A DNA stretch of 64,000 nt from an uncultured Rickettsiales bacterium (lineage in GTDB: Bacteria; Myxococcota_A; UBA796; UBA9615). The stretch spans positions 6,771-70,770 of the forward strand of contig CAZEKB010000023.1 in NCBI GenBank assembly GCA_964512225.1. Direction: 5' to 3'. This document shows positions 15,007 to 29,720 of this stretch, piece after piece (within the stretch, counting starts at the first letter, position 1; the number at the start of each line of letters is the position of its first letter). The position numbers and the translations under genes were made by a program. The notes under the pieces were generated by a model, which searched no databases, was not told the origin of the DNA, and was given only the letters and a program-made list of their open reading frames with translations.

Positions 15007-18000
15007 GGCGCGGCCGCGCCGGGCGGCGACGGCGGCTTCGGCGACTCCGGCCAGCTCCAGATGCCGCCCGACCGGAACTGCTCCCAGCCCCAGCGGAGCC
15101 ACCGCAGCAGGCGTGAGGCCAGCCACAGCGCCCACAGCAGCATCGCCACGCGCCACACCCAGATCGGCAGCCACAGGACGCCCGGCCGGGGGAGCTCCCC
15201 GCCGCTGGTGTCCGTGAACCACTGCAGGACGTTGCCCCAGCTCCCGCCCCCGGCGACCCCGAGGTCGGGCTGCAGCACGAGGCCCGCGTAGACCCCGGCG
15301 TAGAGCACGCCGAGGGCGCCGATCGTGAGGCCGAGGATCACGAGCTGCCCGAGGTCGTGCAGCGCCCACTCGTCGGGCTTGCGACGCCCGCGCAGGGAGA
15401 GCGCGATGAGCCAGAGCACGAGCACGCTCGACGCCGCGGGCGGCACCTGGGTGAGTCCGAGCCCGAGGAGGAACCAGTCCACGCCCGAGAGCGGGGTCGG
15501 CGCGTAGCGAGCGAGCAGGAACGCGATCAGGAACAGCAGCAGGATGTACTGCCACACCGTCACGACGGGCCCCCAGGCCGGCCCCCAGGTCCACAGCACC
15601 CAGCGGTGATCGGGCAGCGTCCACTGGATCTGGACGTTCGCGGCGTCCTGGCCGATGTCCACGGGCGGCGCGGACTGCACGAACCCCGACGCCACCGGCA
15701 GGCCCCACTCCACGTACAGCTCGGTGGCCCCCGGCTCGATCGCGAATACGAGCCGGTCCCCCTCGGGCTGCGCCGGGTGGTCCCGGCCGTTGAGCCGGAA
15801 CGTGCGGAGCATCGCCCCCGGCGGCAGCGTCAGCGACTGCTCTCCGCCCTGGCTCGAGCGCAGCGACACCGTGATGTTCGCCTCCTGGAGGCGACGCCCC
15901 GACGTCAGGTTCATGAGGACGGTGTCGACGGTGGTCGTGGCGCCCTCGGCGGGGGTCGGGCGCGCCAGGCCCAGCGTCAGCGTCTCCCCGGGCCACGGCT
16001 GCCACCGGGGCAGCCATCGCCCCTCGGCGAGGTGCCGCGTGGGCGCCAGCCCTTCGGCGGCGCACGACCAGATCGGGGAGCAGTCGAGGCTCCAGACCTC
16101 GGTCCAGGGGCGGTCGGTCGGCGCCGTGAGCTCGAGGCGCTCGGTCTCGGCGAGCGTCGAGTCCCAGGCCCGCGCGGTCTCCCCGGGCTCCAGGGCCACG
16201 ACGGCGACGTCGCCCTCCTGGACGATCCCCGGCGTCGTCACGGACTCGCCCGGCAGCAGCGGGACGCGCAGCAACACCGCCCGGTTCCCTCCGCCGAGGC
16301 GCAGCACCTGGTTGTGGACGAGCCACGGGACGCCCAGGTCGAGCTCGCGATGGATCTGCAGCCACGGCGGCAGCTCGGCGTTCTCTTCCGCCGACGTCCC
16401 TTCGAGGGCGTCGTCCAGGGGGCGGCTCCGCGACAGCTGCACGGCGCCCGGGGGCGCGGCGTCGGGCCGGTGGCCGGCGAGCGTCCAGCCGTCGCCCTTC
16501 CAGGTGAGCACGCGCGGCGGCGCCGGGAACTGCAGGGCCACCTCGTCGCGGGCGGGGCCCGACAGCTCGATGCGGTGGACGCCCGCGGGCACGCGCATCA
16601 CCAGGAACCCCGAGGCGTCGCGGTGGAGCGCCACCACGTCTCGTCCGTCGAGGCGGACGCGCGCCGGGGCCCACGCCGAGTCGGGACCGGGCAGCCGCCA
16701 CGGCGCCAGGGCCGCGGCGTGCACGTCGGCCACGAGGGTGAGCCCGGCCGCGTCGGCGCGCAGCTCCAGCTCGGCGCTCTGCACGCAGTTCGGCTCGCAG
16801 GCGGGCCGCTTCACGAGGTGGTCGCGGAGCTCGGCGAGGAGCTCGGGGGAGGGGGCCTGCGCCGCGGCGACCCCGGGCAGGGCGGGGAGCGCGAGGGCGA
16901 GCAGCAGGACCAGCGGTCCCATCCTCGGCAGCGTGCCGTGGGAGATCGTCAGCTCGTCCTCGTCGGTGTCGGTCTCGGGGTCGTCGCCGCCGTCGGGGTC
17001 GTCGTCGCCGTCGGGGTCGTCGTCGCCGTCGGGGTCGTCGTCGCCGTCGGGATCGGGCTCCGGCTCGGGTCCCGGCTCCGGCTCGGGCTCGTCGTCCGGC
17101 TCGTCGTCCGGCTCCGGGTCGGGGGGCACGGTCCCCGTGCGACGCGGGTCGCCCAGGAGGAGCAGGAGGAGGATCGCTCCCGCCACCCGGGCGAGCCCCA
17201 GGGCGCCGTTCGTCCCGGGCCCCAGCAGCGTGAGGCGGATCGTGTGATCGGCCGACACCGGCCCGTTCCAACGGAGCTCGTGCCGCTCCCAGACCCACCG
17301 CGGCAGCCCCGGCCCCGTCTGCACGACGGCCTGGGGATCGAGCCGCGCCGCGCGCTTGCCCCAGCCGATCGAGCTCTCGGAGTACCCGTAGCTCGCCCCC
17401 GCCTTTCCGGGCGGCGGGCTCTTCGGCCTCTGCTTCTTGTAGGCGTCGACGTTGGCCTGGATCACCTTCTGCTCGTGCTGCAGGTCCTCCTCGGCGACCT
17501 GGCTCATCACGTCGCCGCCCGCGTCGCCCAGGGTGTAGTCGTAGCTGTTCATGGCGCCCGCGCCGTCGCGGTCGAGCTGCGGGAAGAACGCCGCGCGGCT
17601 CGCCTCCCACGAGAACACGACGACGTTGACCGCGAGGCTGAACACCACGGCCCAGCGGACCCAGTGGACGAGCCTCCCGAACGGGCCCGCGGGGAGGACG
17701 CGCAGCAGGCCGAGCAGGGCGAGCAGCGTGATCCAGGCGAACTTCGGGGCGTCCGGCTCCTGCCAGGACAAGGCGAGAACGACCAGCGCGATCGCCCCCC
17801 AGCCGCGGGACGTGAGGCGGCCCACCGCGAGGGCGATCAGCAGCACGAGGAAGAGGTCCATCAGCGTCCATCGCTCGAGCCAGGACCGGGACGCTTCGTC
17901 GACCCCGCTCGCCGCGAGCAGGCGCCAGCCGGGGGGCAGGTGCAGGCTCGCCCGGAGGCTGCGAGCGTCGCGGTTCCACCCCACCGCGGGGAGGGTCGCG

Positions 18001-19268
18001 CTGCGGGCCCAGACGCTCGCGCCCACGAGGCGGAGGGCGCCGTCCCGCACCTCCACGCCGCCGCCGCCGCCGTCGCCCTGGGTGACCAGCTGGTCCTGGC
18101 CGCCGACGCGCGCCCGGCCGAGCGTCCCCGGCGCCGCGAGCTCGAGGCGGCCGCCCTGGAACAGGCTGCCGGTGACCTGATCGCGCACCGCGAACTCCTC
18201 GCCGTCGAGGGACAGCCAGATCTCACGCTTCACCTCGAGGCGATCCGGGGGCGGATCGGCCTCGCCCCGGCGCAGCTCCACGAAGTCCAGGGAGCCCCCC
18301 ACGCCCACGCGCCACGCGGGCAGCCCGCGCCAGGCGTCGGGCAGCGACGTGCGCGACGGGTCCACGCCGGGGGCGCCGTCCACCCGCACCGAGCGCACGG
18401 CGGGGGCGGCCTGGAACACCCACACCTCCTCCGCGGGCCAGGGATCCCCCACCTTGGGGGCGGTGAGCCCGGGCACGGGCCCGTCGGACCGGGACGCGAT
18501 CGTGATCTCCCAGTCGCCCGGGCGCAGCTGCACCTGCAGCGATCCCTCGCCGTCGAGGCGCGCGGGGAGGCTGCTCGACAGCGACGTGGGGGTGGTGCCG
18601 GCGAGGGTCGGGGAGCCGAGGTCGACCTCCCGGGATCGGCCGGAGACCCGCAGGCGCAGCTTGGTGGCGACCGTCACCGGGACGCCGTCCTCGATGCGTC
18701 GATGCACCTCGATCGCGAGGCGATCCTCCTCGGCCTCTTCGGAGCTGCCGCCCCGGAGCCAGAGCAGCCCGTCCGCGTCGCGGCGCGGGGTCTGCACCGT
18801 CGCGCCGTGGACGGTGAGATCGACGAGCGCGATCGTGGGCGGGACCGCCAGCGACTCGGGGAGGCGCGCCCAGCGGAAGCTGCCGGACACCCGCCGCGTC
18901 CCCGGCTCCAGCCGCACCGCCGGGCTCGACGACGACGCCAGCACCGCGGGCGCGCCCCCTTCGCGGAGGTCGCGGGGCCACCGGATCGCGTCGCCCGGGA
19001 GCGCGACCACCGCGGGGGCGTCCACCACGGCGTCGAGCGTGAAGCGGCCGCCCCGATCGTCCAGATCCAGCGTCAGGCGCCCGGGCCACACGCACAGGGG
19101 GCTCTCGGCGAGGCGCGCGCAGGCCACCTTCTCCTGGCCCCGCAGAGCCCACGGGATCCACTCCTGCAGGGGCGCCGGCACGGCCTCTCGGTCGGCGGCG
19201 GCGGCGATCGCGGGCGAGAGAAAGAGGACGGCCGCGAGGGCGGCGAAGGCGCGTGCGATCAGGGTCAT
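14970..19268 (-). CDS. 1432-aa secreted/membrane protein: signal peptide, large extracytoplasmic domain, 4 TM, acidic (DGDDDP)n linker, second signal-peptide-like segment, second extracytoplasmic domain, C-terminal 5-6 TM bundle
   Basis: A single uninterrupted frame with sensible composition. N-terminus MTLIARAFAALAAVLFLSPAIAAAA. Internal MGPLVLLLALALPALPGVAAAQA at codon 783 (ATG at 16922). The opposite-strand and alternate-frame ORFs are Arg-rich artefacts. Confidence 0.6.
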   Translation of the reverse strand: MTLIARAFAALAAVLFLSPAIAAAADREAVPAPLQEWIPWALRGQEKVACARLAESPLCVWPGRLTLDLDDRGGRFTLDAVVDAPAVVALPGDAIRWPRDLREGGAPAVLASSSSPAVRLEPGTRRVSGSFRWARLPESLAVPPTIALVDLTVHGATVQTPRRDADGLLWLRGGSSEEAEEDRLAIEVHRRIEDGVPVTVATKLRLRVSGRSREVDLGSPTLAGTTPTSLSSSLPARLDGEGSLQVQLRPGDWEITIASRSDGPVPGLTAPKVGDPWPAEEVWVFQAAPAVRSVRVDGAPGVDPSRTSLPDAWRGLPAWRVGVGGSLDFVELRRGEADPPPDRLEVKREIWLSLDGEEFAVRDQVTGSLFQGGRLELAAPGTLGRARVGGQDQLVTQGDGGGGGVEVRDGALRLVGASVWARSATLPAVGWNRDARSLRASLHLPPGWRLLAASGVDEASRSWLERWTLMDLFLVLLIALAVGRLTSRGWGAIALVVLALSWQEPDAPKFAWITLLALLGLLRVLPAGPFGRLVHWVRWAVVFSLAVNVVVFSWEASRAAFFPQLDRDGAGAMNSYDYTLGDAGGDVMSQVAEEDLQHEQKVIQANVDAYKKQRPKSPPPGKAGASYGYSESSIGWGKRAARLDPQAVVQTGPGLPRWVWERHELRWNGPVSADHTIRLTLLGPGTNGALGLARVAGAILLLLLLGDPRRTGTVPPDPEPDDEPDDEPEPEPGPEPEPDPDGDDDPDGDDDPDGDDDPDGGDDPETDTDEDELTISHGTLPRMGPLVLLLALALPALPGVAAAQAPSPELLAELRDHLVKRPACEPNCVQSAELELRADAAGLTLVADVHAAALAPWRLPGPDSAWAPARVRLDGRDVVALHRDASGFLVMRVPAGVHRIELSGPARDEVALQFPAPPRVLTWKGDGWTLAGHRPDAAPPGAVQLSRSRPLDDALEGTSAEENAELPPWLQIHRELDLGVPWLVHNQVLRLGGGNRAVLLRVPLLPGESVTTPGIVQEGDVAVVALEPGETARAWDSTLAETERLELTAPTDRPWTEVWSLDCSPIWSCAAEGLAPTRHLAEGRWLPRWQPWPGETLTLGLARPTPAEGATTTVDTVLMNLTSGRRLQEANITVSLRSSQGGEQSLTLPPGAMLRTFRLNGRDHPAQPEGDRLVFAIEPGATELYVEWGLPVASGFVQSAPPVDIGQDAANVQIQWTLPDHRWVLWTWGPAWGPVVTVWQYILLLFLIAFLLARYAPTPLSGVDWFLLGLGLTQVPPAASSVLVLWLIALSLRGRRKPDEWALHDLGQLVILGLTIGALGVLYAGVYAGLVLQPDLGVAGGGSWGNVLQWFTDTSGGELPRPGVLWLPIWVWRVAMLLWALWLASRLLRWLRWGWEQFRSGGIWSWPESPKPPSPPGAAAPQGTQEASTGQS
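16990..17060 (-). repeat. Tandem 21-nt coding repeats (gtcgtcgtcgccgtcggg ×~3) encoding the (DGDDDP)n acidic linker
   Basis: Direct nucleotide repeats are visible on the plus strand at 16984-17055. Confidence 0.6.
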
Positions 19269-19455
19269 GGAGGCTCCCGAAGAACGGGAGGTTCGACAGC
19301 CTGCCCTCGATCGGGTTCCCGGCTGCCCGCTCCTCCCGACCCCAGCCTACAGATCCACGGGCCGAAACTCGCCCGGTCTCGCGGTCCGCCGAGTGCTTCG
19401 GTTGTCTCGTATGCAATCGGCTGGAAATCGGCACGCGGATCGGCAATCAGGCTCA

Positions 19456-19485
19456 TTGACACCCATTTCCGCGCGTCCTTATATT
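19456..19485 (+). promoter_or_regulatory. σ70-like promoter (TTGACA – 17 nt – TTATAT) upstream of the lipoprotein operon
   Basis: ttgacacccatttccgcgcgtccttatatt lies in the 325-bp divergent intergenic region, about 105 nt upstream of the ATG at 19594. Confidence 0.4.
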
Positions 19486-19593
19486 GACGCTCCCGAGGTC
19501 CCGGCCGCGGTGGGTCCCCGTTTGCCCTCCGCGCGCGACAGGCTGAGACCGATCCCCATGAAGGGGAGTCTTACGGGGGAGGAGTTCCGCCCG

Positions 19594-21474
19594 ATGACGT
19601 TCAGGACCCGATTCCCCATCGCCCTCGCCGCCGCCTTCGCGGTCGCGGGCTGCACGATCGAAGCCGATCCCAACACCGTCGAGGTCGTGGAGGCCGAGCC
19701 CCTCGTGCGCGTCAGCCCCTCGGCGGGCGGCCAAGGGATGGCCTACGAGGTCAAGCTCCGCGGGCTCAACACCCAGTGGCAGCCGGGGGACGTCACCCTC
19801 GACCTCGGCCCCGACATCCAGATCGCGTCGGTCGAGGTGACCGGCCCCAACCACGCCACGGCCGCGATCCAGGTCGGCGAGAGCGCCCAGCTGGGGTTCC
19901 GGCCCATCACCGTCGGGTTCCTGCGCGACGGCGAGGCCACGAGCTTCACGCTCGAAGGCGACGAAGGCTTCCTGGTGGAGACGGGCGGCTTCACCGTGTC
20001 GCCGTCGACCGCGCGCCTCGGCGAGACGCTCACGATCGACATCGTGGGCACGAACACCAACTTCCAGGACGGGTCCACCTGGGTCGACTTCGGCGAGGGC
20101 GTCTTCGTCAACTACGTCACGGTGCTGGACGAGACCCACGCCGTCGCCTCGGTCTCCGTGGATCAGCGCGCGTTCCCCGGAAACCACGACATCGTCGTCT
20201 TCAACGGCCCCACCGGCTGGTCGCTGCAGGACGGGCTGTTCGTCGACCGCACCGCCATCGCCATCGAGATCGACCCCGCCTTCGGCAACCAGGGCGAGCA
20301 GCTCTCGTTCACGCTGCAGGGTCGCAACACGCACTTCCAGGACACGACGCTCGTCAACGAGGCCGGGCTGACCGTCCGTCGCACCACGCTCGTGGACCTC
20401 GGCCCCAGCATCTGCGTCAACGAGTTCTGGCCCAACTGCCAGGACCGGGTGCGCCCCGGCGGCGAAGTGCAGGTCGTCAACGGCGAGCTCGCGCTCGGCC
20501 AGATGCACATCAGCAACGGCGCCCAGCCGCAGACGTACGACGTGCGCATGTACGTGCTCGAGGAGCTCCTCGGCGCGCCCCCCGAGGAGTACACGATCGT
20601 CGAAGAGGTCATCTGCCACGACTGCTTCGAGGTGCGACCCGTCCCGATCAACTGCAAGGACAACCCGGGCGTCAGCCTGTCCTTCAGCATCTCCCGGAAC
20701 ATCAACAACGACACCTGCGCCATCGAAGAGCGCGTGTCCGCCGGGGTGGTCTTCTACACGCCGCTCGATCCGCCCTGCGGCAACCCCGGCCAGATGCCGC
20801 CCCCGCCCTGGGACGTCAACGGGATCCTCACGCCCCCGCCCCCGGCCGACTGCCCCGGGCCGCGCACGTGCGACGCGGGCGACTTCGTCTACTTCGAGTC
20901 GGATCTCAACGTCATCACGATGGCGAAGAACGAGAACCCGTTCACGGGCGAGATCGGCTACTCGCCCATCGCCCCGCTGACGCTCGACGACTACAAGTTC
21001 GGCTACGTGGACTACGACCTGCGGGCCGAGGGCAGCGACGACCCGACCCAGATCCCGGCGTTCACGATGGAGGACGTGCTCTTCACGCTCCCCGCCGACT
21101 TCCAGCTCCTCGAGCCCATGGTCTGCGAGAACTTCACGCACGACCCGGCCCTCGAGCTGCCCATCGCCTGGACCCCCGCGCAGACGTACGACGTCGCCGG
21201 GCTGTCCTCGGTGTACGCCACGTCCGACGCGGAGGGGCAGGCCTACCAGCTGCTCGCCTTCCCCTGGGACGACGGCGAGTACGAGTTCCCGTCCGACTGG
21301 CTCGGCGCTCTCCCCGAGGGCGGCGGCTACTTCATCTTCGGCGCCGGCGTGAACGAGCCGAAGTGGTTCCTGGACTTCGGCGAGGGCCCCGTGGGGCTCG
21401 AGAACCAGGCTCGCTCGGGCCTCTCCTACCGCGGCTTCATGCTGCTGCAGGGCGCCGAAGAGGACGAGGAATAG
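19594..21474 (+). CDS. Lipoprotein (626 aa), function unknown
   Basis: GGGGAGGAG SD 8-9 nt upstream of the ATG. N-terminus MTFRTRFPIALAAAFAVAGC (lipobox). An in-frame ATG 36 nt upstream, at 19558, is less likely to be the start. Confidence 0.7.
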   Translation: MTFRTRFPIALAAAFAVAGCTIEADPNTVEVVEAEPLVRVSPSAGGQGMAYEVKLRGLNTQWQPGDVTLDLGPDIQIASVEVTGPNHATAAIQVGESAQLGFRPITVGFLRDGEATSFTLEGDEGFLVETGGFTVSPSTARLGETLTIDIVGTNTNFQDGSTWVDFGEGVFVNYVTVLDETHAVASVSVDQRAFPGNHDIVVFNGPTGWSLQDGLFVDRTAIAIEIDPAFGNQGEQLSFTLQGRNTHFQDTTLVNEAGLTVRRTTLVDLGPSICVNEFWPNCQDRVRPGGEVQVVNGELALGQMHISNGAQPQTYDVRMYVLEELLGAPPEEYTIVEEVICHDCFEVRPVPINCKDNPGVSLSFSISRNINNDTCAIEERVSAGVVFYTPLDPPCGNPGQMPPPPWDVNGILTPPPPADCPGPRTCDAGDFVYFESDLNVITMAKNENPFTGEIGYSPIAPLTLDDYKFGYVDYDLRAEGSDDPTQIPAFTMEDVLFTLPADFQLLEPMVCENFTHDPALELPIAWTPAQTYDVAGLSSVYATSDAEGQAYQLLAFPWDDGEYEFPSDWLGALPEGGGYFIFGAGVNEPKWFLDFGEGPVGLENQARSGLSYRGFMLLQGAEEDEE

Positions 21475-21487
21475 GAAGAAGGCCCGC

Positions 21488-22366
21488 ATGACGCGACTCT
21501 CGACGAACCTCTCGATCCTCCTGATCTCCGGCGCGCTCCTGGGCGCGACCGGCTGCCAGGACAACGGGATCCGCGCGCTGAACTTCGGCAAGACGGCGAT
21601 CATCACCGGCGACTTCGACACCGTGGAGCAGCTCATCCAGGAGGTCGCGAACGTCAGCGAGGTCCAGGCGGACATCCACCGCTACCACGGGTACGTCGAC
21701 GGTCCCCACTTCGAGACCGAGGTGGACCCGGCCCCCAGCCTCCAGGTGGAAGACCTCCTGCGCGGCAACATCAATACGCTGTCGTCCTTCTCGACCGTCT
21801 TCTTCTCCTGCGGCATGCGGGGCGTGGGCGAGTTCCGATACAACGGCGTGGCCGAGGACGATCACCTCGTCATCGACGGCACGGTGATCGACAACCTGCA
21901 GAACACGGCCCGGCGCGGCGCGAACCTGTACTTCTCCGACTGGACGTACGACTTCGTGAAGGCGTCGTGGCCCGACCAGATCGACTGGCTCGGGGACGAC
22001 GACCTCGACTCCGCCCAGAAGGGCATGGCCGGTCCGGTGGCGGCGCGCGTGGTCGACGAGGCGCTCGCCGAGCAGATGGAGGTGCCCGTGGGCACCGAGA
22101 TCGAGATCGAGTTCAACCAGAGCGGGTGGGCCGTGATCGAGAGCGTGTCCGACGACGTCGAGGTCCTCGTCGAGGGCGACATCCTCGTGGACGACGTCGA
22201 GTCCGGGCAGCCGCGCGCGATCGCGGGGGCCCCGCTCGTGGTGGCCTTCGACTCGCCCACCGGCAGCGGACGCATCGTCTACACCGCGTTCCACAACGAG
22301 GCGCAGCTGACGGACGACGCCCGAGACGTCCTCCGCTTCCAGCTCGGCCAGCTCGCAGGAAACTGA
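21488..22366 (+). CDS. Lipoprotein (292 aa), function unknown
   Basis: N-terminus MTRLSTNLSILLISGALLGATGC. It starts 13 nt after the preceding stop. Confidence 0.7.
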   Translation: MTRLSTNLSILLISGALLGATGCQDNGIRALNFGKTAIITGDFDTVEQLIQEVANVSEVQADIHRYHGYVDGPHFETEVDPAPSLQVEDLLRGNINTLSSFSTVFFSCGMRGVGEFRYNGVAEDDHLVIDGTVIDNLQNTARRGANLYFSDWTYDFVKASWPDQIDWLGDDDLDSAQKGMAGPVAARVVDEALAEQMEVPVGTEIEIEFNQSGWAVIESVSDDVEVLVEGDILVDDVESGQPRAIAGAPLVVAFDSPTGSGRIVYTAFHNEAQLTDDARDVLRFQLGQLAGN

Positions 22367-22370
22367 AGGC

Positions 22371-24164
22371 ATGACCCCACGCATCTTCCGCCGCGGCCTC
22401 GCCGCGGGCGTCCTGCTCGTGTTCGCCTTCGCCGCGGGCGCTTGCGAGAACGACATCCGGCTCTTCGAGAAGACCCAGAACGACGTGTTCGTTCAGGAGC
22501 TCCGCCGCAAGGTCGACGTCCTCCTCGTCGTCGACAACTCGTGCTCGATGATCGACGAGCAGCAGAAGCTCGCCGCGAACTTCGACAACTTCATCGCCCA
22601 GTTCCTCAACGCCGAGGTGAACTACCAGATCGGCGTCACGACCACGGACATGTCCGACCCGACCCAGAGCGGGCGGCTCGTGGGCGATACCAAGATCATC
22701 ACCGCGGACATCCCCATCGACGAGGCCCGCGGCCTGTTCCAGGACAACGTCAAGGTCTGCTCCCAGGGCAGCGGCTTCGAGCGCGGGCTGGCGGCGGCAG
22801 AGGCCGCGCTCACGACCCACATGGACGACGGCGGCGCGAACGTCGGGTTCCTGCGCGAGGACGCGGCCCTGTCGGTCGTGATCGTGTCCGACGAGGACGA
22901 CCTCAGCCCCAAGCCGGTCGGCGAGTACCTGACCACGATCAAGGGCGTGAAGGGCGCGGCCGGCTACCGGGACGACACGCTCGTGAACATCTCGTCCGTC
23001 GTCGGCGATCCCCCGAGCGGCTGCGAGCAGCCCGCCCCGGTGATCCCCGACTGCACGGACGGCGTCGACAACGAAGAGGATGAGCCCGACGGCGACGTGG
23101 ACTGCGCGGACGACGACTGCGCGACCTCCCGCTGGTGCCTGTTCGACAACTTCGGCGAGCTCGACTGCACGGACGGCGTCGACGACGACAACGACGGCGC
23201 GGTGGACTGCGCGGACGCGGACTGCGGCGGCTTCAACCACTGCCGCGAGAGCGAGTGCGCCGACGGCGAGGACGACGACGGCGACGGCCAGGCCGACTGC
23301 CGCGACATGGACTGCCTGGTGGATCAGCCCGAGGTGTGCGGGGAGCTCGACTGCGAGGACGGCGAGCTGCTGCACAACAGCCCCGACCCCCAGGACCGCG
23401 TGCCCAACTTCTGGCTCGACTGCGGCGACCCGTCGTGTTTCGCCCAGGAGGAGACCGCCGAGCTGTGCCAGGGCGGGCGGTTCGACATCGGCGTGGACGA
23501 CCCGACCTGGGGCGGGGGCTACAAGGACCGCTGCGAGCTCACGGTCGAGTACGACGCCGCCAACGGCAGCCTCGACCAGGCCGACGGCCTCGACATCGAC
23601 GACGCGTCCGGCCTCGACGGCGAGCTGGCGGGCTGCGCGGACCCCGACTGCGCGACCTACTGGCTGTGCGCCGTCCCGAACCTCGACGTGGAGGGCACGG
23701 CCGAGTGCGGCGACTGCCTCGACAACGACGGGGACGGCGCGGAGGACTGCGAGGACCTCGACTGCCTCGAGTCGGACTTCTGCGACAACCCCTACCCGAT
23801 CGACCCGGGCAGCCGGTACATCGACGTGTCGCACCGCAGCGGCGGGATCGTGACGTCGATCTGCGCCGAAGAGTTCTCCGGCCTCGTGCGCGAGCTCGGC
23901 CTGAACATCTCGGGCCTGCGCTCGATCTTCTACCTGTCGTCCTGGCCCCAGCGCGGGAAGATCCAGATGCGCTACAACGACGCCCGGTCGGACGAGCTGA
24001 TCACCGAGGGGTGGGCCCACGACGTCGACCAGAACCGCATCGTCTTCGACGAGGAGGCGATCCCCCCCGAGGGCACGATCATCTACGTCACCTACCCGCG
24101 CGCCACCCGACCGCCGTCCGAACAGGCCGAGCCGGAGCCCGAGTCCGAGGACGACGCCCGATGA
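22371..24164 (+). CDS. Lipoprotein with N-terminal von Willebrand factor A domain (MIDAS DNSCS) and C-terminal Myxococcus-type cysteine-rich repeats (CxDGxDxDxDGxxDCxDxDC)
   Basis: MTPRIFRRGLAAGVLLVFAFAAGAC, then VDVLLVVDNSCSM, then multiple CTDGVDNEEDEPDGDVDCADDDC-type repeats. Confidence 0.8.
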   Translation: MTPRIFRRGLAAGVLLVFAFAAGACENDIRLFEKTQNDVFVQELRRKVDVLLVVDNSCSMIDEQQKLAANFDNFIAQFLNAEVNYQIGVTTTDMSDPTQSGRLVGDTKIITADIPIDEARGLFQDNVKVCSQGSGFERGLAAAEAALTTHMDDGGANVGFLREDAALSVVIVSDEDDLSPKPVGEYLTTIKGVKGAAGYRDDTLVNISSVVGDPPSGCEQPAPVIPDCTDGVDNEEDEPDGDVDCADDDCATSRWCLFDNFGELDCTDGVDDDNDGAVDCADADCGGFNHCRESECADGEDDDGDGQADCRDMDCLVDQPEVCGELDCEDGELLHNSPDPQDRVPNFWLDCGDPSCFAQEETAELCQGGRFDIGVDDPTWGGGYKDRCELTVEYDAANGSLDQADGLDIDDASGLDGELAGCADPDCATYWLCAVPNLDVEGTAECGDCLDNDGDGAEDCEDLDCLESDFCDNPYPIDPGSRYIDVSHRSGGIVTSICAEEFSGLVRELGLNISGLRSIFYLSSWPQRGKIQMRYNDARSDELITEGWAHDVDQNRIVFDEEAIPPEGTIIYVTYPRATRPPSEQAEPEPESEDDAR

Positions 24165-24736
24165 ATCGGCTCGCGGCCCTCTTCGCCGCGCTGTGCGCCT
24201 GCGCCCTGATCCTCGGCGCGGGGGCGTGCGATCAGGCCGAGTGCGAGACGTCCGCCAACTGCCCCCAGGGCGAGGTGTGCAACGCCGACGGGCGGTGCGA
24301 GATCCAGACCTGCGGCAGCTCCCTGGACTGCAACATCGAGGAGTTCTGCGACTTCGAGAGCGGCAACTGCACCAGCGGCTGCCTGAACGACCGCGACTGC
24401 CTCCCCACGCACGCCTGCGAGACCGAGTCGCGCACCTGCGTGCGCCCGGGCTGTCGAAACACCCAGCTCGACTGCAACATGGGCGAGTTCTGCAACAACC
24501 TCACGGGCGAGTGCTACGACGCCGGGGGGTTCTACTGCTCCACGTGCGAGAGCAGCGAAGACTGCGGCTCCGCCAACAACGTGTGCCTGCGCATGGGCGG
24601 CTCGAACCAGACCTACTGCGGCGTCGACTGCTCCGGCGGTCAGGAGTGCCCGCGCGGGTACGAGTGCGCGCGCGTGCGCAGCCTGGGGGACGTGACGGTC
24701 GGCTTCCAGTGCATCGCCGCCTGCTGGGAGCTCTGA
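24161..24736 (+). CDS. Small cysteine-rich lipoprotein (191 aa; five C-x3-DC-x5-C-x5-C modules)
   Basis: ATGA overlap with the VWA gene. N-terminus MNRLAALFAALCACALILGAGAC. Contains 30 Cys. Confidence 0.7.
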   Translation: MNRLAALFAALCACALILGAGACDQAECETSANCPQGEVCNADGRCEIQTCGSSLDCNIEEFCDFESGNCTSGCLNDRDCLPTHACETESRTCVRPGCRNTQLDCNMGEFCNNLTGECYDAGGFYCSTCESSEDCGSANNVCLRMGGSNQTYCGVDCSGGQECPRGYECARVRSLGDVTVGFQCIAACWEL

Positions 24737-24740
24737 GACC

Positions 24741-27632
24741 ATGCTGCGAGCCGCTCGCCTCGTCCTCGCCCTGGCCTGCGTCGTCGTCGTGGGGTGCCCC
24801 ACCGACGGGGAGGATCCCACCCCCGAGCCCACGCCCCCGGACTGCGACGGCGAGTACACGCCGCCCGAGCTGGCGATCGTCCCCATCGAGGACGGCCGGC
24901 CCACCGGCTTCCCCGTGGACGTGATCGTCGAGGCCGTGGACGAGGACGGCATCAACAACGTCCTGCTGTACTACCGGACCGAGGGCGTCCTCGACTGGGC
25001 CTTCATCTTCCTGAGCGAGATCCCCGACCAGGAGAACCTGTACGGCGGCCAGATCCCCGCGGGCGTCGTGCGCGAGCCCGGCGTCGACTGGTACATCGTG
25101 GCCGAGGACGTGGGCGAGTGCGCGACCGACGCGCGCCTGCCGCCGGACGCCCCGGACAGCTGGCTGAACTTCAAGACCGAGGTCTCGGTGCACCCCATCC
25201 CGGTGTCCGAGAACTTCGACACCGAGAACTGCGGCGAGGACCTCGACGACCTGGGCTGGACCTCGTGGATCGGGTCGTTCCCCCAGGAGCGCCACGCCTG
25301 GAAGACCGACCCCCGCGGCCCCCTGTCGGGCGGGTGCTCGGCCTACCACGACGAGGGCATCCCGGGGGGCCTGTGGCCCTGCCCCGCCGACGGCGGCGGC
25401 ATCGAGCGGGACAACTGGCTGATCACCCCCGCGCTCGACTTCACCACCAAGGAGGCCGTGGCGGTCCGCTGGTTCGAGCGGCACCGCGAGTCGGGCATCT
25501 GCGCCGAGCTGCACGAGCTGTACGTCAGCACCGGCTCGCCGGACCCGGCGGGCGAGGACTGGCAGCTGCTGGCGGGCGACCTGCCCCTGCCGGGGGCGTC
25601 CTGGCAGTCGTCCGACTGGTACGACCTCACGGAGCTCGCGGGCACCGAGCGCGTCTACCTCGCGCTGCGCTACCTCGGCGGCTCGGCGGGGCGCTGGCAG
25701 ATCGACGACTTCTACGTGGGCGAGCCGCTGGCGGACCTCGTGCTCGCCGAAGCGCCGACCCTGGACGAGACCGTCGAGCCCGGCACCACCGGCATCGAGC
25801 TCGCGCTGACCGTGCGGAACACGTCGGAGCTGTACGGCTCGCCGCAGCTCAACGCGACGCTGACCACGGGCGACGACGACCTCTCCATCACCGCCGCCGA
25901 GACCACGCTGCCCCCGCTGGCCGTGGGCGAGAGCGCGCCCCTGGACGCGAGCTTCGTCTTCGACGTCCTGGCCACGCACCCGGACAACGCGTACCTCGAC
26001 TTCGGTCTCGTCCTCGACGACGGGGACGCGGGCCACACCTGGACCATCCCCATCCGCATGCTCATGGGCCAGGAGAGCTACGTGACCGTCACGGTCACCA
26101 CGCCCGCCCTCTCGGAGCTGGACCTGGAGCTGGGCTACGGGTCGTTCGCGGCGCCCACCTTCTCGGTCGCGACCAACAGCGAGCTCCAGCCGGAGGTGCC
26201 GGACACGGACACGCGCACCTGGCGGCTGGACGTGACGGAGCACGCGGCGGTCCTGCCCCCGGGTCCCGGCGACGCTCGCTGGTACCTCGAGTGGGAGAAC
26301 GACACGGGCTTCGTGGGCGCGACGGTCGACTCGCTGGTCTTCGAGGTCGGCGGGGTGCAGTACGCCCCCGAGGACCTGCCCGCCGTCGTGAACGATCGGG
26401 AAGGCGACCACCTCCTCTTCCCGCCCCCGCCGGTGCTCGTGGTCGAGAGCTTCGAGACGGACCCCGATCCGGCGGCCCCGGGCACGAGGGTCACGCTGCA
26501 GAACGTCGTCCTGCGCAACGACGGCGCGGCCACGGCGGGGGCCGTCGACTGCATCGCGGGCTCGGCTCACCCCCACGCCGTGAACTTCTCCACCGCCCCG
26601 TCCGGGTTCGGCGGAGCGATCCTCGAGCCCGGGGCGACGGGCACGTCGGACACCGATCTGTCCTTCGACATCGCGCCCCAGCACACCGACAACACCGACA
26701 TCCCCGTGACGCTGGTATGCACGGACGGCGCGGACACGCTCACCCCCGGGCTGGACGTCCCCGTGCCCTACCCGAACATGACGACCCTGTCCGTCCGCAT
26801 CGACGACGACGCGGGGAACGACGACGGCTACGCCGACGCGGGCGAGACCGTGGACGTGTGGATCACCGTCACCAACGACGGCGCGCTCCCCACGGGCGGC
26901 GCCGTCACGGCCACGCTGACCCCCGCCCCCGCCGACAGCACCGCCGTGTTCGTGGCCCCCGGGAGCACTGCGCTGACCTTCGGCGCGGCGGCCTTCGATC
27001 CGGGGACGTCCGCCGAGGCGGACCAGAGCTTCTCGCTGGCCGTCGACGGCGCGGCGCTCATGGGCGACACGATGGTCTTCGACGCCGTCTACGAGTCCGA
27101 CGGCGATACCTGGACCGAGCAGGTCGTCGTCGAGGTCACGGGGCTGCCCTGGACCGACTGCTCCGAGCCGGACGACCCGATGGGGGACAGCGTCGGCACC
27201 TTCGACTTCGACATCAAGGGCTGCGCGAGCCGCAGCGACGACACGCTGCTGCAGATCCGCCTGGACTCCTGGACCCCGTTCAACCCGGCCACGACCGCCG
27301 TGTGGTTCTTCCTGTACGAGGTCCCCCTGCTCTACAGCATCGAGTACGTGCCCCCGGGCCTCGACTTCGAAGAGGGCTGCGTGGCGGGCGACGACATCGT
27401 CGGGCCGACGATGATGCCCACGGTCCTGAGCGACGGGCTCAGCTCGACGGTCCGGCTCCACCTCGACGACCTCGGGACCAACGGCGAGATCGGTCGCAAC
27501 GTGCAGGTCGCCTTCGGGGTCGGGTACTGCAGCGAGATCAACTACTGCGACACGTATCCCGTGGGCGCCGTCGCGTTCAGCGGGGGAGCCGCGAGCTGCA
27601 ACGAGAGCGCGTACATCCCCATCAACTGGTAG
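24741..27632 (+). CDS. Large lipoprotein (963 aa) with adhesin/MAM-like and Ig-like domains
   Basis: N-terminus MLRAARLVLALACVVVVGC. Starts 5 nt after the preceding stop. Confidence 0.7.
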   Translation: MLRAARLVLALACVVVVGCPTDGEDPTPEPTPPDCDGEYTPPELAIVPIEDGRPTGFPVDVIVEAVDEDGINNVLLYYRTEGVLDWAFIFLSEIPDQENLYGGQIPAGVVREPGVDWYIVAEDVGECATDARLPPDAPDSWLNFKTEVSVHPIPVSENFDTENCGEDLDDLGWTSWIGSFPQERHAWKTDPRGPLSGGCSAYHDEGIPGGLWPCPADGGGIERDNWLITPALDFTTKEAVAVRWFERHRESGICAELHELYVSTGSPDPAGEDWQLLAGDLPLPGASWQSSDWYDLTELAGTERVYLALRYLGGSAGRWQIDDFYVGEPLADLVLAEAPTLDETVEPGTTGIELALTVRNTSELYGSPQLNATLTTGDDDLSITAAETTLPPLAVGESAPLDASFVFDVLATHPDNAYLDFGLVLDDGDAGHTWTIPIRMLMGQESYVTVTVTTPALSELDLELGYGSFAAPTFSVATNSELQPEVPDTDTRTWRLDVTEHAAVLPPGPGDARWYLEWENDTGFVGATVDSLVFEVGGVQYAPEDLPAVVNDREGDHLLFPPPPVLVVESFETDPDPAAPGTRVTLQNVVLRNDGAATAGAVDCIAGSAHPHAVNFSTAPSGFGGAILEPGATGTSDTDLSFDIAPQHTDNTDIPVTLVCTDGADTLTPGLDVPVPYPNMTTLSVRIDDDAGNDDGYADAGETVDVWITVTNDGALPTGGAVTATLTPAPADSTAVFVAPGSTALTFGAAAFDPGTSAEADQSFSLAVDGAALMGDTMVFDAVYESDGDTWTEQVVVEVTGLPWTDCSEPDDPMGDSVGTFDFDIKGCASRSDDTLLQIRLDSWTPFNPATTAVWFFLYEVPLLYSIEYVPPGLDFEEGCVAGDDIVGPTMMPTVLSDGLSSTVRLHLDDLGTNGEIGRNVQVAFGVGYCSEINYCDTYPVGAVAFSGGAASCNESAYIPINW

Positions 27633-27717
27633 CCGCGACACCCGCTCCTTCGTCGCTTATGTTGTAGGCGTTCAGGATCCCCGCCCGCCGATCGGCGAGC
27701 GGTCTGCAGGAGTTCGA

Positions 27718-28515
27718 ATGGCCCCCAAGGCGCTCCCCGACGGATACCACCTCTCGCTCTCCATCTCCCAGTCGCTGTGGTCCGACCTGCTGGGACAAGC
27801 CCTCCCGATCCAGGTCGGGACCGGCGAGTTCGAGCTCATCGAGCAGAGCCGCAAGCTGCTGCACATGGCCGAAGACCAGGTGAAGGGGCTGCTCACCGGC
27901 GCCGGCGAGGCCATGGACTCGGCCCCCGTCATCGGCGGGTCCGTGGGCAAGGGCGTGCGCGGCAAGCTCAAGGGCGTGGCCAAGCGGGGCCGGAACTTCC
28001 TCTCGCGCAAGGTCGAGGAGAGCGTGAAGGTCACGGGCAACTGGAAGGTCAACGTCGCCAAGGACGGCAGCTCGTTCGACTACCACGACGACGGAGTCAC
28101 CCTGGACGCGCGCGTCGGCGTGGAGGTCGAGGGCCGGGCCCTGCTGCTGGGCGACCAGTTCGAGATCCCGTTCACGATCACGCACGACGTCAACGGCACC
28201 GCCTCCCTGGACGAGGTGGGCTTCAACAGCGACCGCAACCAGCTCGAGGGCAGCCTCGGCAGCGTGTCGCTGTCCCTGGGTGAGAGCCTCCCCCTGCGGC
28301 TGCTGAAGACCGTCGCCGACCGGCTGATCGAGCAGCAGATCATCAAGATGAACCCGCTGCCCCTCATCCCGAGCTCGACCATCGAGAACATGGTCCTGCC
28401 CGCGGGCGGGCCGCTGCGGCTGTCGGCCTCGATCGAGGACCTGTTCGTCGGCATCAACGGCGAAGACCTGACGCTGTCCGTCCGCTTCGCGTTCACGGGC
28501 GACGCCGCCGCTTGA
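27718..28515 (+). CDS. Hypothetical cytoplasmic protein (265 aa)
   Basis: GCAGGAG SD 5 nt upstream of the ATG. Composition is normal. The stop overlaps the downstream start (TTGA). Confidence 0.55.
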   Translation: MAPKALPDGYHLSLSISQSLWSDLLGQALPIQVGTGEFELIEQSRKLLHMAEDQVKGLLTGAGEAMDSAPVIGGSVGKGVRGKLKGVAKRGRNFLSRKVEESVKVTGNWKVNVAKDGSSFDYHDDGVTLDARVGVEVEGRALLLGDQFEIPFTITHDVNGTASLDEVGFNSDRNQLEGSLGSVSLSLGESLPLRLLKTVADRLIEQQIIKMNPLPLIPSSTIENMVLPAGGPLRLSASIEDLFVGINGEDLTLSVRFAFTGDAAA

Positions 28516-29720
28516 CCAGCCCCGCCGGATCCATCGCCGGACACGTCCTGACTCCCCGCGGCGACGGGAAGACGGCCCTGCTGCGCGACGCCCGCGTGGC
28601 GTGGGCGGGCGGGCGCATCACCGAGATCGGCTCCGGCACCGGCGACCTGTTGCTGATCCCCGGGCTCGTCGACGTCCACGTCCACCTCCCCCAGCACCGC
28701 GTCCGGGGCCGCTTTCAGGACGCGCTGCTGCCGTGGCTGCGCGACAGCATCTGGCCCGAGGAGATGCGTTTCGCCGAGCGCGAGTACCGCGAGGGGTGCA
28801 CGCGCGAGTTCCGGCAGGGGCTGATCGCGGCGGGCACCACCGCGGCCATGGTGTACGGCTCCCCGCTGGGCGACTCCGCCTACGCCGTCCTGGAGGACCT
28901 CGCGCCGCTGTGCATCAAGGGCGGCGACGTGCTGATGGACCGCAACGGCCCCGCCGCGACCCTGCGCGCGGCCCCGGCGGCGATGAAGGAGGCGGCCGAG
29001 CACGTGGCGACGTTCGGGGAGCGGTACGCGGTGACCCCGCGGTTCGTCCCCACCTGCTCCCCCGCGCTGATGACCGCCTGCGGGGAGCTGCTGGCGACGA
29101 CCGACGCGCGCATGCAGACGCACCTGTCCGAGAACCTCGACGAGGTCGCGTGGGTGCGGGATCTGCACCCCGAGTGCGACTCCTACACCGCCGTGTACGC
29201 GGAGCACGGGCTGCTGGGGCCGCGCTCGATCTTCGGGCACTGCATCCACCTGTCGGACGCCGAGCTGACCATGCTCGCCGAGTCGGGGTCGTGGGTCGCT
29301 CACTGCCCCACGTCGAACGTCGCGCTGGGGAGCGGGCGCATGCCCCTGGAGCGGATCCGCGCGGCGGGGATCCCGATCGCGCTGGCGACGGACGTGGGGG
29401 CGGGGCCGGAGCTGTCGATGCTGCACGTCATGGCGACGTGCGTGGACGTGCACCGGGGCGTGGTGGACGTCGCTCCGTCCGAGGCGCTCCGTCTGGCCAC
29501 CGTCGCGGGGGCCGCCGCCATGGGCGAGCCCGCGCGCGGAGCGTTGAAGCCGGGTTTCCACGCCGACGTCGTGGGGCTCCATGTGCCCGGCGGACTGCGC
29601 CGGAGCGACGACGCGGACAGCGTCCTCGCGCGCATCTTCGAGGAGTTCCGAGATCGCTGGGACGACGCCGTCGCCGCGGTGTTCGTGAGCGGCGAGCGCG
29701 TCGACGCCGCGCTATCGTGA
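28512..29720 (+). CDS. guaD: Guanine deaminase-like amidohydrolase
   Basis: GLVDVHVHLPQHRVRGRFQDALLPWLRDSIWPEEMRF aligns with the GuaD signature HIHYPQ…LLEWL…FP.E.R(F/Y). TTG start overlapping the upstream stop; a downstream GTG is also possible. Confidence 0.75.
   Translation: MTSPAGSIAGHVLTPRGDGKTALLRDARVAWAGGRITEIGSGTGDLLLIPGLVDVHVHLPQHRVRGRFQDALLPWLRDSIWPEEMRFAEREYREGCTREFRQGLIAAGTTAAMVYGSPLGDSAYAVLEDLAPLCIKGGDVLMDRNGPAATLRAAPAAMKEAAEHVATFGERYAVTPRFVPTCSPALMTACGELLATTDARMQTHLSENLDEVAWVRDLHPECDSYTAVYAEHGLLGPRSIFGHCIHLSDAELTMLAESGSWVAHCPTSNVALGSGRMPLERIRAAGIPIALATDVGAGPELSMLHVMATCVDVHRGVVDVAPSEALRLATVAGAAAMGEPARGALKPGFHADVVGLHVPGGLRRSDDADSVLARIFEEFRDRWDDAVAAVFVSGERVDAALS

Follow-up and report, generated by a model that had tools for sequence, protein, structure and literature searches.

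A conserved run of five lipoprotein genes containing a VWA/MIDAS candidate adhesin and a cysteine-rich partner in an uncultured marine myxobacterium-like lineage

Results and discussion

We analyzed a window of 64,000 nt (the whole stretch of DNA under study) in which five successive plus-strand genes encode lipoproteins of 626, 292, 597, 191, and 963 aa: g1 (19594..21474), g2 (21488..22366), g3 (22371..24164), g4 (24161..24736), and g5 (24741..27632). They are separated by gaps of 13, 4, −4, and 4 nt, and the coordinates, sizes, and gaps given in a preliminary description of this DNA were exact on rechecking. The reading frames are supported by GC3 values of 0.93–0.97, and the same five genes were called independently on six metagenome contigs. 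Each protein begins with a basic n-region, followed by a hydrophobic segment and a lipobox (VAGC, ATGC, AGAC, AGAC, and VVGC in g1 to g5, with the lipidated Cys at positions 20, 23, 25, 23, and 19, respectively); all five were scored as signal peptides ending in [LVI][ASTVI][GAS]C. The run of five lipoproteins that had been proposed is real, and both signal peptide and lipobox are kept in approximately 18 species-level relatives. Ortholog lipoboxes, including those of g1 and g5, are conserved except in truncated open reading frames and a few mild variants (NLGC, WGC, and TNGC). Under lenient criteria, at most four of the 30 other genes in the window resembled lipoproteins, and fewer than 0.2 such runs would be expected by chance in a genome of 5,000 genes, whereas this one is retained in about 18 species-level loci. 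None of g1 to g6 (g6 being the next gene downstream) matched an anti-phage defense model in PADLOC, and a defense-system reading was rejected on this ground. All homologs of the five genes are metagenome or MAG proteins. The NCBI taxonomy labels of the MAGs that carry the relatives are inconsistent (Rickettsiales, Enterobacterales, Deltaproteobacteria, and Myxococcota).

The residues at position +2 of the mature proteins are T, Q, E, D, and P in g1 to g5, and none is Lys. Lys at +2 is the inner-membrane retention signal in the sorting rule reportedly described for Myxococcus xanthus by Bhat et al. in 2011, and by this rule the five proteins carry no such signal. Judged from these N-termini, g1–g5 are probably exported and sorted to the outer membrane, where they may be exposed at the cell surface.

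The five genes also appear to form one transcription unit. A sigma-70-like promoter (TTGACA-18 nt-TATATT; 19456..19485, plus strand) lies 108 nt upstream of the g1 start and is the sole such site in 19000–30000 (11/12 matches; 0.3 expected). The corresponding site, TTGACx-18-TATAxT, was found upstream of g1 in 14 of 16 orthologous loci at 10/12 matches or better, and in one more at 9/12, at a distance of 70–115 nt from g1 (23 nt in two loci). Conversely, it was found upstream of g2, g3, g5, or g6 in none of the 15–18 loci compared, and no plus-strand terminator was detected. In 18 loci, neighboring genes lie very close together or overlap (median gaps from g1 to g5 of 12, 19, −1, and 2 nt in 16–18 loci). 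Because of this spacing and the single conserved promoter-like site ahead of g1, with none internal, g1–g5 behave as one operon that would be transcribed from a sigma-70-type promoter.

The next gene, g6 (27718..28515, plus strand; 265 aa), starts 85 nt after g5, with neither a promoter-like site nor a plus-strand terminator in between, and may be co-transcribed with g1–g5. It is kept after g5 in 15 loci (46–87% identity) and has no Cys and no family or PDB matches. Since it lacks a signal peptide and is absent in two of the related loci (L087 and L088), we set it aside as a sixth member and regard it as a possibly co-transcribed gene whose membership of the system is doubtful.

Sequence families covered little of the cluster: Pfam returned nothing for g2, g3, g4, g5, or g6, even at E ≤10, and when ortholog alignments of g1, g2, g5, and g6 served as profiles against the PDB, nothing emerged beyond noise or a weak Ig-like match. 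g1 has N-terminal Ig-like domains, of which residues 135–202 match Pfam PF09099 (Ig-like domain III; 30.8 bits, cut-off 22), followed by a Cys-containing C-terminal domain of no recognized fold; the profile search found no sequence relative of g1 in the PDB. In g5, residues 218–325 match NF038128 (choice_anch_J; 40.7 bits, cut-off 30), residues 61–137 weakly match the Ig-like domain of PPAD, and residues 581–743, in the long C-terminal region, weakly match a region of the MXAN_5808 family (myxobacterial peptidase). By these profile matches, g1 and g5 are predicted Ig-like and choice-of-anchor-J β-sandwich proteins.

The AF2 model of g2 (pLDDT 85.3, pTM 0.83) has the class-I glutamine-amidotransferase fold with an added β-sandwich; its Foldseek matches in the PDB were 3fij and 3rht (GATase1-like), PurQ, and PabA (E 4e-7 to 1e-4, probability 1.0). 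D151 and H269 are invariant, and D151 sits at the strand–helix elbow. The Cys-His-Glu catalytic triad is not conserved among g2 orthologs, many of which have D or S in place of C108, and an active amidotransferase role was rejected on the basis of these replacements. g2 thus differs from GATase1, DJ-1, and ThuA-type domains, with which it shares the fold, in being a lipoprotein with an extra β-sandwich, without the conserved triad, and restricted to one lineage: a search of 5.8 billion proteins yielded only 78 homologs, almost never outside the cluster. As its nucleophile is not conserved, the modeled g2 is best described as a lineage-restricted glutamine-amidotransferase-like pseudo-enzyme or scaffold.

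The fold of g2 bears on one alternative for the whole cluster, namely a surface complex for nutrient capture or processing, similar to the "utilisome" of Bacteroidota, in which g2 and the β-sandwich proteins would bind a polymer or modify it, with the VWA protein g3 in an accessory role. The fold resembles the GATase1-like domains of GH42 β-galactosidases, γ-glutamyl hydrolases, and a levan-utilisome component, polysaccharide utilization loci typically contain runs of consecutive lipoproteins, and an amidohydrolase gene lies downstream. However, besides the lost nucleophile (with Asp at the elbow), none of the five genes matched an enzyme family, no TonB-dependent transporter was found among the genes scanned, and the amidohydrolase belongs to the conserved background synteny; in many loci, other genes stand between it and the cluster. 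We consider this alternative improbable.

The third gene, g3, encodes a VWA/MIDAS domain and a C-terminal β-strand region. The MIDAS motif DNSCS reported in the preliminary description was recovered at residues 55–59 (D55-N-S57-C-S59; 22533..22547, plus strand). Together with G133-S134-G135-x-E137 and S173-D174-E175, D55, S57, and S59 are invariant in 18 full-length orthologs. Across 54 long and short members of the family, D55, S57, S59, G133, E137, S173, D174, and E175 remain invariant and G135 nearly so, whereas S134 does not; which of the downstream residues would coordinate the MIDAS metal is judged here from conservation. The Pfam VWA models PF00092 and PF13519 did not match g3 even at E ≤10, and Pfam VWA models gave weak matches in only one of the 54 members (E 0.0035–0.0075). 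The AF2 model (pLDDT 82.1) matched the VWA domain of TFIIH p44 (top match), the βI domain of integrin β3, αI domains, and TRAP in Foldseek (probability 1.0, E down to 6e-7). g3 accordingly combines the two hallmarks of a VWA domain, a DxSxS motif with candidate downstream metal ligands and an α/β Rossmann-like fold.

VWA domains also occur in non-adhesive roles, as assembly factors and as chelatase or MoxR partners. Genes for a MoxR AAA+ ATPase, DUF58, or transmembrane VWA proteins were not found among the scanned window genes around the cluster or in the related loci, and a Bat/MoxR-VWA operon was rejected because these hallmark genes are missing. The preliminary description had suggested metal binding or adhesion; adhesion is the best-supported function, since g3 is a MIDAS/VWA protein, and we treat g3 as an adhesin candidate.

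The VWA domain of g3 is interrupted after strand βE by an insertion of 255 aa (residues 219–472; 23025..23786, plus strand) that holds six acidic double-disulfide modules. Four of them are canonical (C-x-D-G-x-D-x-D-x-D-G-x-x-D-C-x-D-x-D-C; residues 228–250, 266–285, 296–315, and 446–465) and two are degenerate, ending in DCGDPSC356 and GCADPDC427, so that the "six or more" repeats counted earlier amount to four, or to six only with the degenerate ones. The repeats belong to NF033662, a family of acidic double-disulfide repeats defined by at least 41 bits and four Cys per acidic unit of about 30 aa (68.5 bits in four stretches of g3). The family named previously, TIGR02232 (myxo_disulf_rpt), was rejected, with no match among the NCBIfam hits of g3 and g4 at E ≤0.1; a MopE-type Cu-motif identity was likewise rejected (no match to PF11617). 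The g3 module CGDCLDNDGDGAEDCEDLDC aligned with the C-rich domain of teneurin-4 (PDB 7plp, E 0.004), whose crystal structure shows three Ca2+ coordinated by the aligned acidic residues (PMC9058538). This resemblance to the teneurin C-rich domain and to thrombospondin type-3 repeats is a motif-level match only, and, unlike in teneurin, the module of g3 is bacterial, occurs in tandem copies, and lies within a VWA domain. The acidic modules are thus predicted to bind Ca2+, and because they match a solved Ca2+-binding module, the metal-binding part of the earlier proposal seems right in the Ca2+ sense.

By alignment, the acidic-repeat insertion is missing from the short paralogs of g3 and from the ortholog at locus L023. 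Elsewhere in the family, inserts at two VWA-loop sites differ: L087 and L088 carry one of approximately 130 aa, and L091 has a lamin-tail domain. Such variation suggests the tuning of specificity that is typical of adhesins. Where the insertion lies with respect to the MIDAS face is presumed from VWA topology rather than taken from measured coordinates.

The repeats could instead be the functional part of a device for sequestering Ca2+ or another metal, or for binding matrix mineral, with the MIDAS secondary. g3 contains 22.6% Asp plus Glu, its repeats match the three-Ca2+ module, and a MopE-type metal-motif protein is encoded nearby at 31888–32940. On the other hand, the repeats are a late insertion in one clade (L023, L087, L088, L091, and all short paralogs are without them), members without repeats still keep both the MIDAS motif and g4, and the MopE Cu motif is missing from g3, which together make this explanation quite improbable.

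The fourth gene, g4, overlaps the g3 stop by 4 nt (median g3–g4 gap of −1 nt in 18 loci) and encodes a small lipoprotein with a four-Cys period of roughly 23 aa. It contains 29 Cys rather than the 30 reported before: 26 belong to the mature chain, two to the signal peptide, and one to the lipobox. A set of 116 diverse members of its family retains all 26 mature Cys as well as D79 and D104; the family comprises 811 representative clusters, and none of ten sampled clusters had an informative name. The score of g4 against TIGR04201 (Myxo_Cys_RPT) was 13.6 bits (E 0.057), below the 25-bit threshold. The likeness to that family is confined to the four-Cys period.

In more than 70 of 79 species-level loci, and in differing genomic contexts, the VWA gene is followed immediately by a g4-like gene. 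A short form of the g3–g4 pair occurs without g1, g2, or g5 in more than 55 loci, and 21 loci have the pair next to ffh, grpE, and other housekeeping genes, with none of these three. The recurrent neighbors of the short pair are housekeeping genes (ffh, grpE, spoU, mazG, and DUF4340); no other conserved neighbors were found for it, and the upstream genes at locus L008, among them one for an FG-GAP/MopE protein, were seen again only in close relatives. The short pair therefore stands alone. Hence the g3–g4 pair, which the preliminary description had not singled out, is the truly conserved core of the cluster.

The larger cluster is also conserved. The order g1-g2-g3-g4 is kept down to 31–35% identity, at L091, so the scattering of homologs that would have spoken against a functional unit is not observed. 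A 6-kb insertion in the lineage of the window lies outside the five genes and not within them. However, synteny across the clade extends to the flanks, with RNase HII upstream and both ECH and amidohydrolase downstream, even at the most distant loci, L023 and L087, and because these housekeeping flanks are conserved as well, the adjacency of g1, g2, and g5 to g3–g4 is weaker evidence than it appears. Taken at face value, the equally conserved flanks and the many short pairs could mean that only g3 and g4 are functionally linked, g1, g2, and g5 being unrelated lipoproteins held adjacent by general conservation of gene order. We regard this as unlikely, given the few-nucleotide or overlapping gaps, the sole promoter-like site ahead of g1, the placement of the 6-kb insertion, the persistence of g1 to g4 together at L091, and the near confinement of g2 homologs to the cluster.

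Among named families, the best score of g3 was with NF052240, the MIDAS adhesin of the Bd0875 type (66.3 bits in two stretches; 52–67 bits for the short paralogs). As this is far from the equivalog cut-off of 700 bits, g3 is a distant relative of Bd0875 and not its equivalog. Bd0875 of Bdellovibrio bacteriovorus and g3 share a VWA domain with a DxSxS motif near the N-terminus and disulfides, and the insertion of g3 may correspond to the "cap" of Bd0875. In Bd0875, residues 1–56 and 326–378 form a small domain with conserved Tyr/Trp, and the MIDAS domain bears a cap (PMC11003981). The model of g3 has an N-terminal strand at residues 35–41 and C-terminal strands at 519–577, which could form a comparable small domain, and a conserved aromatic residue in the C-terminal region is common to both proteins (W548 in g3, invariant in the alignment). 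Unlike Bd0875, g3 has a putative cap made of the acidic double-disulfide repeat array and is a member of a five-lipoprotein operon, and its Cys-rich downstream partner was not found beside two Bacteriovoracaceae homologs (L068 and L079).

CglB of M. xanthus is an outer-membrane lipoprotein (C20) with MIDAS residues D56, S58, and S60 (PMC9946355). The lipobox Cys25 and the DxSxS motif of g3 mirror it, in a likeness of layout that we compared via published values; both proteins contain about 4–5% Cys with structural disulfides, and the extra small β domain of CglB may have a counterpart in the C-terminal β-strand region of the g3 model. The GltABCHK platform with which CglB acts is not encoded at this locus, and, unlike g3, CglB has not been described with a Cys-rich partner gene or acidic repeats. 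Asp-to-Ala mutations in the MIDAS abolish function in both Bd0875 (PMC11003981) and CglB (PMC9946355).

The third relative, CglD, a β-integrin-like gliding lipoprotein of M. xanthus represented by NF033765, matched the short paralogs of g3 over the VWA region only (25–39 bits; model positions 634–871), whereas g3 itself had no match at E ≤0.1; the scores fall far short of the 400-bit equivalog cut-off of that family. CglD and g3/g4 nevertheless are lipoproteins with the same three elements, namely a MIDAS VWA domain, acidic repeats that bind Ca2+ (predicted for g3), and a Cys-rich disulfide "stalk". CglD is a single chain of 1130 aa in the order repeats, EGF-like, and VWA, with DxDxDG repeats of the thrombospondin type (bioRxiv 10.1101/2023.10.19.562135). 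In contrast, g3 carries its repeats within the VWA domain, and a separate gene, g4, encodes the Cys-rich module. The earlier statement that the cluster is not a named system therefore holds for the five-gene set; it does not hold for the VWA component, which belongs to the class of MIDAS-adhesin lipoproteins that includes Bd0875, CglB, and CglD.

These relatives also bear on a fairly unlikely alternative: an envelope assembly at the outer or inner membrane that faces the periplasm, with the VWA/MIDAS domain mediating protein–protein assembly within the envelope, for example as an accessory of motility, secretion, or tethering. Most bacterial lipoproteins face the periplasm, many disulfides require only an extracytoplasmic location, and VWA domains are often assembly modules, TFIIH p44 being the top structural match of g3. 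Even CglB stays within the Glt platform of the outer membrane before becoming exposed (PMC9946355). Nevertheless, the closest characterized relatives (Bd0875, CglB, and CglD) are surface adhesins, the choice-of-anchor J domain of g5 is a type from surface-sorted proteins, the variable cap inserts of g3 suggest a diversifying, outward-facing specificity, and the conserved cluster contains no membrane-machine genes.

We favor, at roughly even odds, an outer-membrane lipoprotein adhesion module encoded by the g1–g5 operon, with translationally coupled g3 and g4 as its functional core. This module most likely serves attachment at the cell surface in a Ca2+-loaded form and is related to adhesins that function in the gliding and prey invasion of other predatory bacteria. 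The integrin-I-domain-like MIDAS of g3 would carry a Mg2+ or Ca2+ ion to which an acidic group of the ligand binds, as in Bd0875 and CglB, and in the marine clade the six acidic modules would form a surface-loop cap rigidified by the Ca2+ of seawater. g4 would be a rod or knot of 13 disulfides, most likely docking on g3 as a stalk, mask, or co-receptor. The proteins g1 and g5, and g2 as an inactive scaffold with an amidotransferase fold, would be lineage-specific accessory lipoproteins of the same surface assembly, which may act as a physical complex in matrix binding.

A more specific form of this adhesion reading, possible but rather doubtful, is that g3 and g4 make up a two-chain, integrin-like adhesin, with one polypeptide supplying the MIDAS head and the other the Cys-rich stalk or mask, and that the five-lipoprotein operon elaborates the pair; Asp79 or Asp104 of g4 would fill the MIDAS of g3 until a substrate displaces it. 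An Asp of g4 at the MIDAS would then be a self-contained counterpart of the "masking" of CglB in Myxococcus gliding.

MIDAS/VWA lipoproteins are substrate-coupling adhesins in myxobacterial gliding (CglB and CglD) and in prey invasion by Bdellovibrio (Bd0875), but their partners and diversity beyond model strains are poorly known. The present locus adds a large candidate adhesin family missed by Pfam, a nearly invariable Cys-rich partner gene from a large family of its own, and two loop sites with differing putative "cap" modules, including the predicted Ca2+-binding repeats, the lamin-tail domain, and others. If the pair is a functional two-chain adhesin, it would offer a testable handle on surface and prey attachment by uncultured marine predatory bacteria, as well as a bacterial parallel to the head-plus-stalk design of integrins. 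The g3–g4 pair is spread over many uncultured Myxococcota and Bradymonadia-like lineages.

Translation coordinates of the five consecutive plus-strand genes g1 to g5 place products of 626 aa (19594–21474), 292 aa (21488–22366), 597 aa (22371–24164), 191 aa (24161–24736), and 963 aa (24741–27632) at intergenic gaps of 13, 4, −4, and 4 nt, exactly as in the preliminary description. The G+C content of the window is 72%, and all five frames were backed by GC3 values of 0.93–0.97 (GC3 analysis). The translations and inspection of the lipoboxes also bore out the claim of five lipobox-bearing products: each starts with a basic n-region and a hydrophobic core, followed by a lipobox (VAGC in g1, ATGC in g2, AGAC in g3 and g4, and VVGC in g5). 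Because at most 4 of the 30 other genes in the window resemble lipoproteins by lenient criteria, a chance run of five is unlikely. Independent gene calls on six marine metagenome contigs with an identical g2 protein (JGI 3300007754, 3300007510, and 3300007511, and ENA assemblies) gave the same g1–g5, every member of which is annotated as "hypothetical"; these contigs also trace the window to marine metagenomes. In Myxococcus xanthus, a Lys at position +2 bears on lipoprotein sorting; since none of the five products carries one, they would be sorted to the outer membrane; one alternative is a periplasm-facing assembly.

The five genes are organized as an operon. A sigma-70-like site upstream of g1 (TTGACA-18-TATATT, 19456–19485) was the sole such site in 11 kb (0.3 expected), and no plus-strand terminator-like sites were found in 19000–30000. 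Scanning 300 nt upstream of g1 in each of 16 orthologous loci gave a top promoter-like match of at least 10/12 for 14 of them and of 9/12 for a fifteenth; these sites nearly always read TTGACx-18-TATAxT and mostly lay 70–115 nt ahead of the start codon. Applied to the regions before g2, g3, g5, and the next plus-strand gene, g6, the scan found such a site in 0 of 15–18 loci. Median intergenic distances from g1 to g5 were 12, 19, −1, and 2 nt (16–18 loci), and the g3–g4–g5 junctions were the tightest in the cluster, which suggests translational coupling.

We examined synteny by scanning GTDB species representatives and by tblastn with all window genes. Genes g1–g5 occurred in order in 16 loci (approximately 45–65% identity), followed in most by g6 (L007, L009–L022). 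More distant carriers were L023 and L087 (33–50% identity) and, likewise, L088, and the most remote case of the g1–g2–g3–g4 order was L091, a 4.8-kb contig retaining genes like these four at 31–35% identity. Background synteny was also high: RNase HII upstream and the ECH and amidohydrolase genes downstream were kept, even in L023 and L087, and adjacency alone therefore overstates the link of g1, g2, and g5 to the core of the cluster. A functional link confined to g3–g4 is accordingly one of the alternatives. RNase HII (11959–12624, minus strand in the window) directly precedes g1 in 14 other loci. Two large genes in between, encoding a 775-aa lipoprotein (lipobox LAAC; 12679–15006, plus strand) and a 1432-aa protein in which no domain was recognised (14970–19268, minus strand), were present only in the window lineage and L009; they are a lineage-specific insertion of approximately 6.7 kb that leaves the five-gene block and its promoter intact.

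The real core of the cluster is the g3–g4 pair, and the pairing of the VWA gene with its partner is near-obligate: a g4-like Cys-rich gene lay directly downstream of the g3 relative in more than 70 of 79 distinct loci. The majority of these paired loci contained a short VWA gene (approximately 310–390 aa) without g1, g2, and g5, and the long cluster and the short pair often occurred in one MAG (L018 with L025; L021 with L027). We found no constant neighbours of the short pair beyond its two genes. In 21 genomes, this putative adhesin pair sits in a stable housekeeping neighbourhood (ffh, grpE, spoU, and DUF4340): ffh (SRP54) adjoins the short VWA gene on its upstream side in L028, L032, L037, and 18 other loci, with GrpE, SpoU, and DUF4340 genes nearby; in the three loci named, ffh is encoded on the opposite strand. 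The g4 family comprised 811 representative clusters at E ≤1e−3 and 275 at E ≤1e−10, mostly of 170–260 aa; ten sampled clusters yielded no informative names. Among 116 diverse small members, 26 Cys, Asp79, and Asp104 were essentially invariant, and 104 had a lipobox. The g4 product itself contains 29 Cys, one fewer than initially counted, with 26 in the mature chain. Such a conserved Cys-rich partner gene of a VWA lipoprotein is new here.

A clade-specific insertion of acidic Cys repeats sits within the VWA/MIDAS fold of the g3 product. A Pfam search of g3 returned no match, and 1 of 54 g3-family members weakly matched Pfam VWA models. The AF2 model built from 54 sequences (pLDDT 82, pTM 0.73) matched TFIIH p44 VWA, integrin beta3 beta-I, alpha-I domains, TRAP, and PTMP1 at a Foldseek probability of 1.0. 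Residues D55, S57, S59, E137, and D174 were invariant in the 54 members, and S134 only among the 18 full-length orthologs. Approximately 45 full-length relatives (56–88% identity) were all from marine metagenomes or MAGs and all unnamed or "hypothetical".

Alignment with the short forms delimited the insertion to residues 219–472, which follow the strand ending VVGDPPSGC218 and precede R482-Y483. g3 scored 68.5 bits (cut-off 41) against the NCBIfam acidic double-disulfide repeat model NF033662; of the six or more repeats originally proposed, four acidic Cys modules are canonical and two are degenerate. The repeat CGDCLDNDGDGAEDCEDLDC aligned with the teneurin-4 C-rich domain (PDB 7plp, E 0.004), in the crystal of which acidic residues hold three Ca2+ at thrombospondin-type-3-like and LDL-A-like sites (PMC9058538). 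The 325-aa ortholog in L023 is without the insertion. Three distant orthologs without the acidic Cys insert carry other material at an earlier site, after G101-R-L: a different insert of approximately 130 aa in L087 (5193–6533) and L088 (9923–11221), and a lamin-tail domain (PF00932) in L091 (3074–4645). Also new are the modular caps inserted at two loop sites of a VWA domain and the predicted Ca2+-repeat array within that of g3. In L091, an acidic double-disulfide repeat occurs in the g1-like gene. The g3 search also returned lamin-tail-domain proteins of 480–560 aa from Myxococcota MAGs (P0051–P0112; 47–66% identity over 12–18% of g3), a large set with acidic double-disulfide repeats; as they have these repeats in common with g3, the repeat is a mobile module in these lineages. 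In L003 (12330–12712), compared with L001 (12330–12700), a 17-nt deletion in g3 removes the GGIVTS strand (assembly ERZ23498913); together with a 29-nt gain upstream, it leads to g3 and g4 being called as one 766-aa gene. Either the repeat region is misassembled or the strain carries a pseudogene or fusion.

The overall layout of g3 (lipobox Cys25, an N-terminal strand, DxSxS at 55–59, the inserted cap, and a C-terminal beta-strand region with invariant W548) parallels Bd0875 of Bdellovibrio and CglB of M. xanthus. The adhesin Bd0875 has a small domain of residues 1–56 and 326–378, a conserved Tyr/Trp, and a MIDAS-domain cap, and its D66A mutant is non-functional (PMC11003981). The gliding lipoprotein CglB, compared with g3 by layout, has C20, then D56, S58, and S60, a beta-jellyroll, and 17 Cys, and its D56A mutant is non-functional (PMC9946355). 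g3 fell below the equivalog thresholds of both Bd0875 (NCBIfam NF052240, 66 bits, cut-off 700) and the gliding lipoprotein CglD; short g3 paralogs aligned to the CglD VWA region (NF033765 positions 634–871, 25–39 bits). The g3 product is a distant member of the MIDAS-adhesin lipoproteins, a class known from predatory Bdellovibrionota and Myxococcota, and the g1–g5 set is not a described system.

A search of 5.8 billion proteins yielded only 78 homologs of g2, almost all being orthologs from the cluster. Its AF2 model (pLDDT 85, pTM 0.83) combines a class-I glutamine-amidotransferase-like fold with a beta-sandwich, and Foldseek matched it to 3fij, the GATase1-like protein 3rht, PurQ, PabA, and GH42 middle domains (E 4e−7 to 1e−4). 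Many orthologs have Asp or Ser in place of the candidate nucleophile C108; an invariant Asp151 occupies the strand-helix elbow, and His269 is likewise invariant. We read g2 as a non-catalytic scaffold, a GATase-like pseudo-enzyme. This orphan GATase-fold lipoprotein is also new. g1 contains at least one Ig-like domain (PF09099 at 135–202), and no relatives of its C-terminal domain were found. g5 contains a choice-of-anchor J domain (40.7 bits, cut-off 30), with weak matches to an MXAN_5808-family peptidase region (581–743) and, Ig-like, to PPAD (61–137). The 265-aa g6 product (27718–28515, plus strand) lacks both a signal peptide and Cys, is basic in a central stretch, and gave no family or PDB match. 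g6 follows g5 in 15 loci (46–87% identity); L087 and L088 lack it. The gene has no promoter-like site before it and may be co-transcribed, but is outside the lipoprotein set.

The carriers of g1–g5 are all uncultured, and we infer function from these features. As in characterised relatives, g3 would bind a ligand carboxylate via a MIDAS-held cation. Judging from VWA topology, the insertion would leave the beta-E loop on the MIDAS face and may form a Ca2+-rigidified cap tuning specificity. g4 may serve as a stalk, mask, or co-receptor docked on g3, and g1, g2, and g5 would be lineage-specific accessory surface proteins. Alternatively, the set may form a nutrient-capture complex or serve in Ca or metal sequestration.

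Outside the cluster and on the opposite strand, a gene at 31888–32940 (minus) encodes a protein of 350 aa whose putative Cu-binding motif is of the MopE type (PF11617, E 4e−11). Downstream of the amidohydrolase gene, plus-strand genes for a hybrid histidine kinase (PAS-HisKA-HATPase-receiver, 29749–31485) and a DUF7793/SpoIIAA-like protein (31482–31880) overlap by 4 nt. The minus strand also contains three very large ORFs: one of 1541 aa with a PMT_2 glycosyltransferase region (34648–39273), one with Ig-like, PKD, and REJ domains (91–4038), and one with no domain match (4202–8587), the latter two of which, read from internal start codons, may begin with lipoprotein signals.
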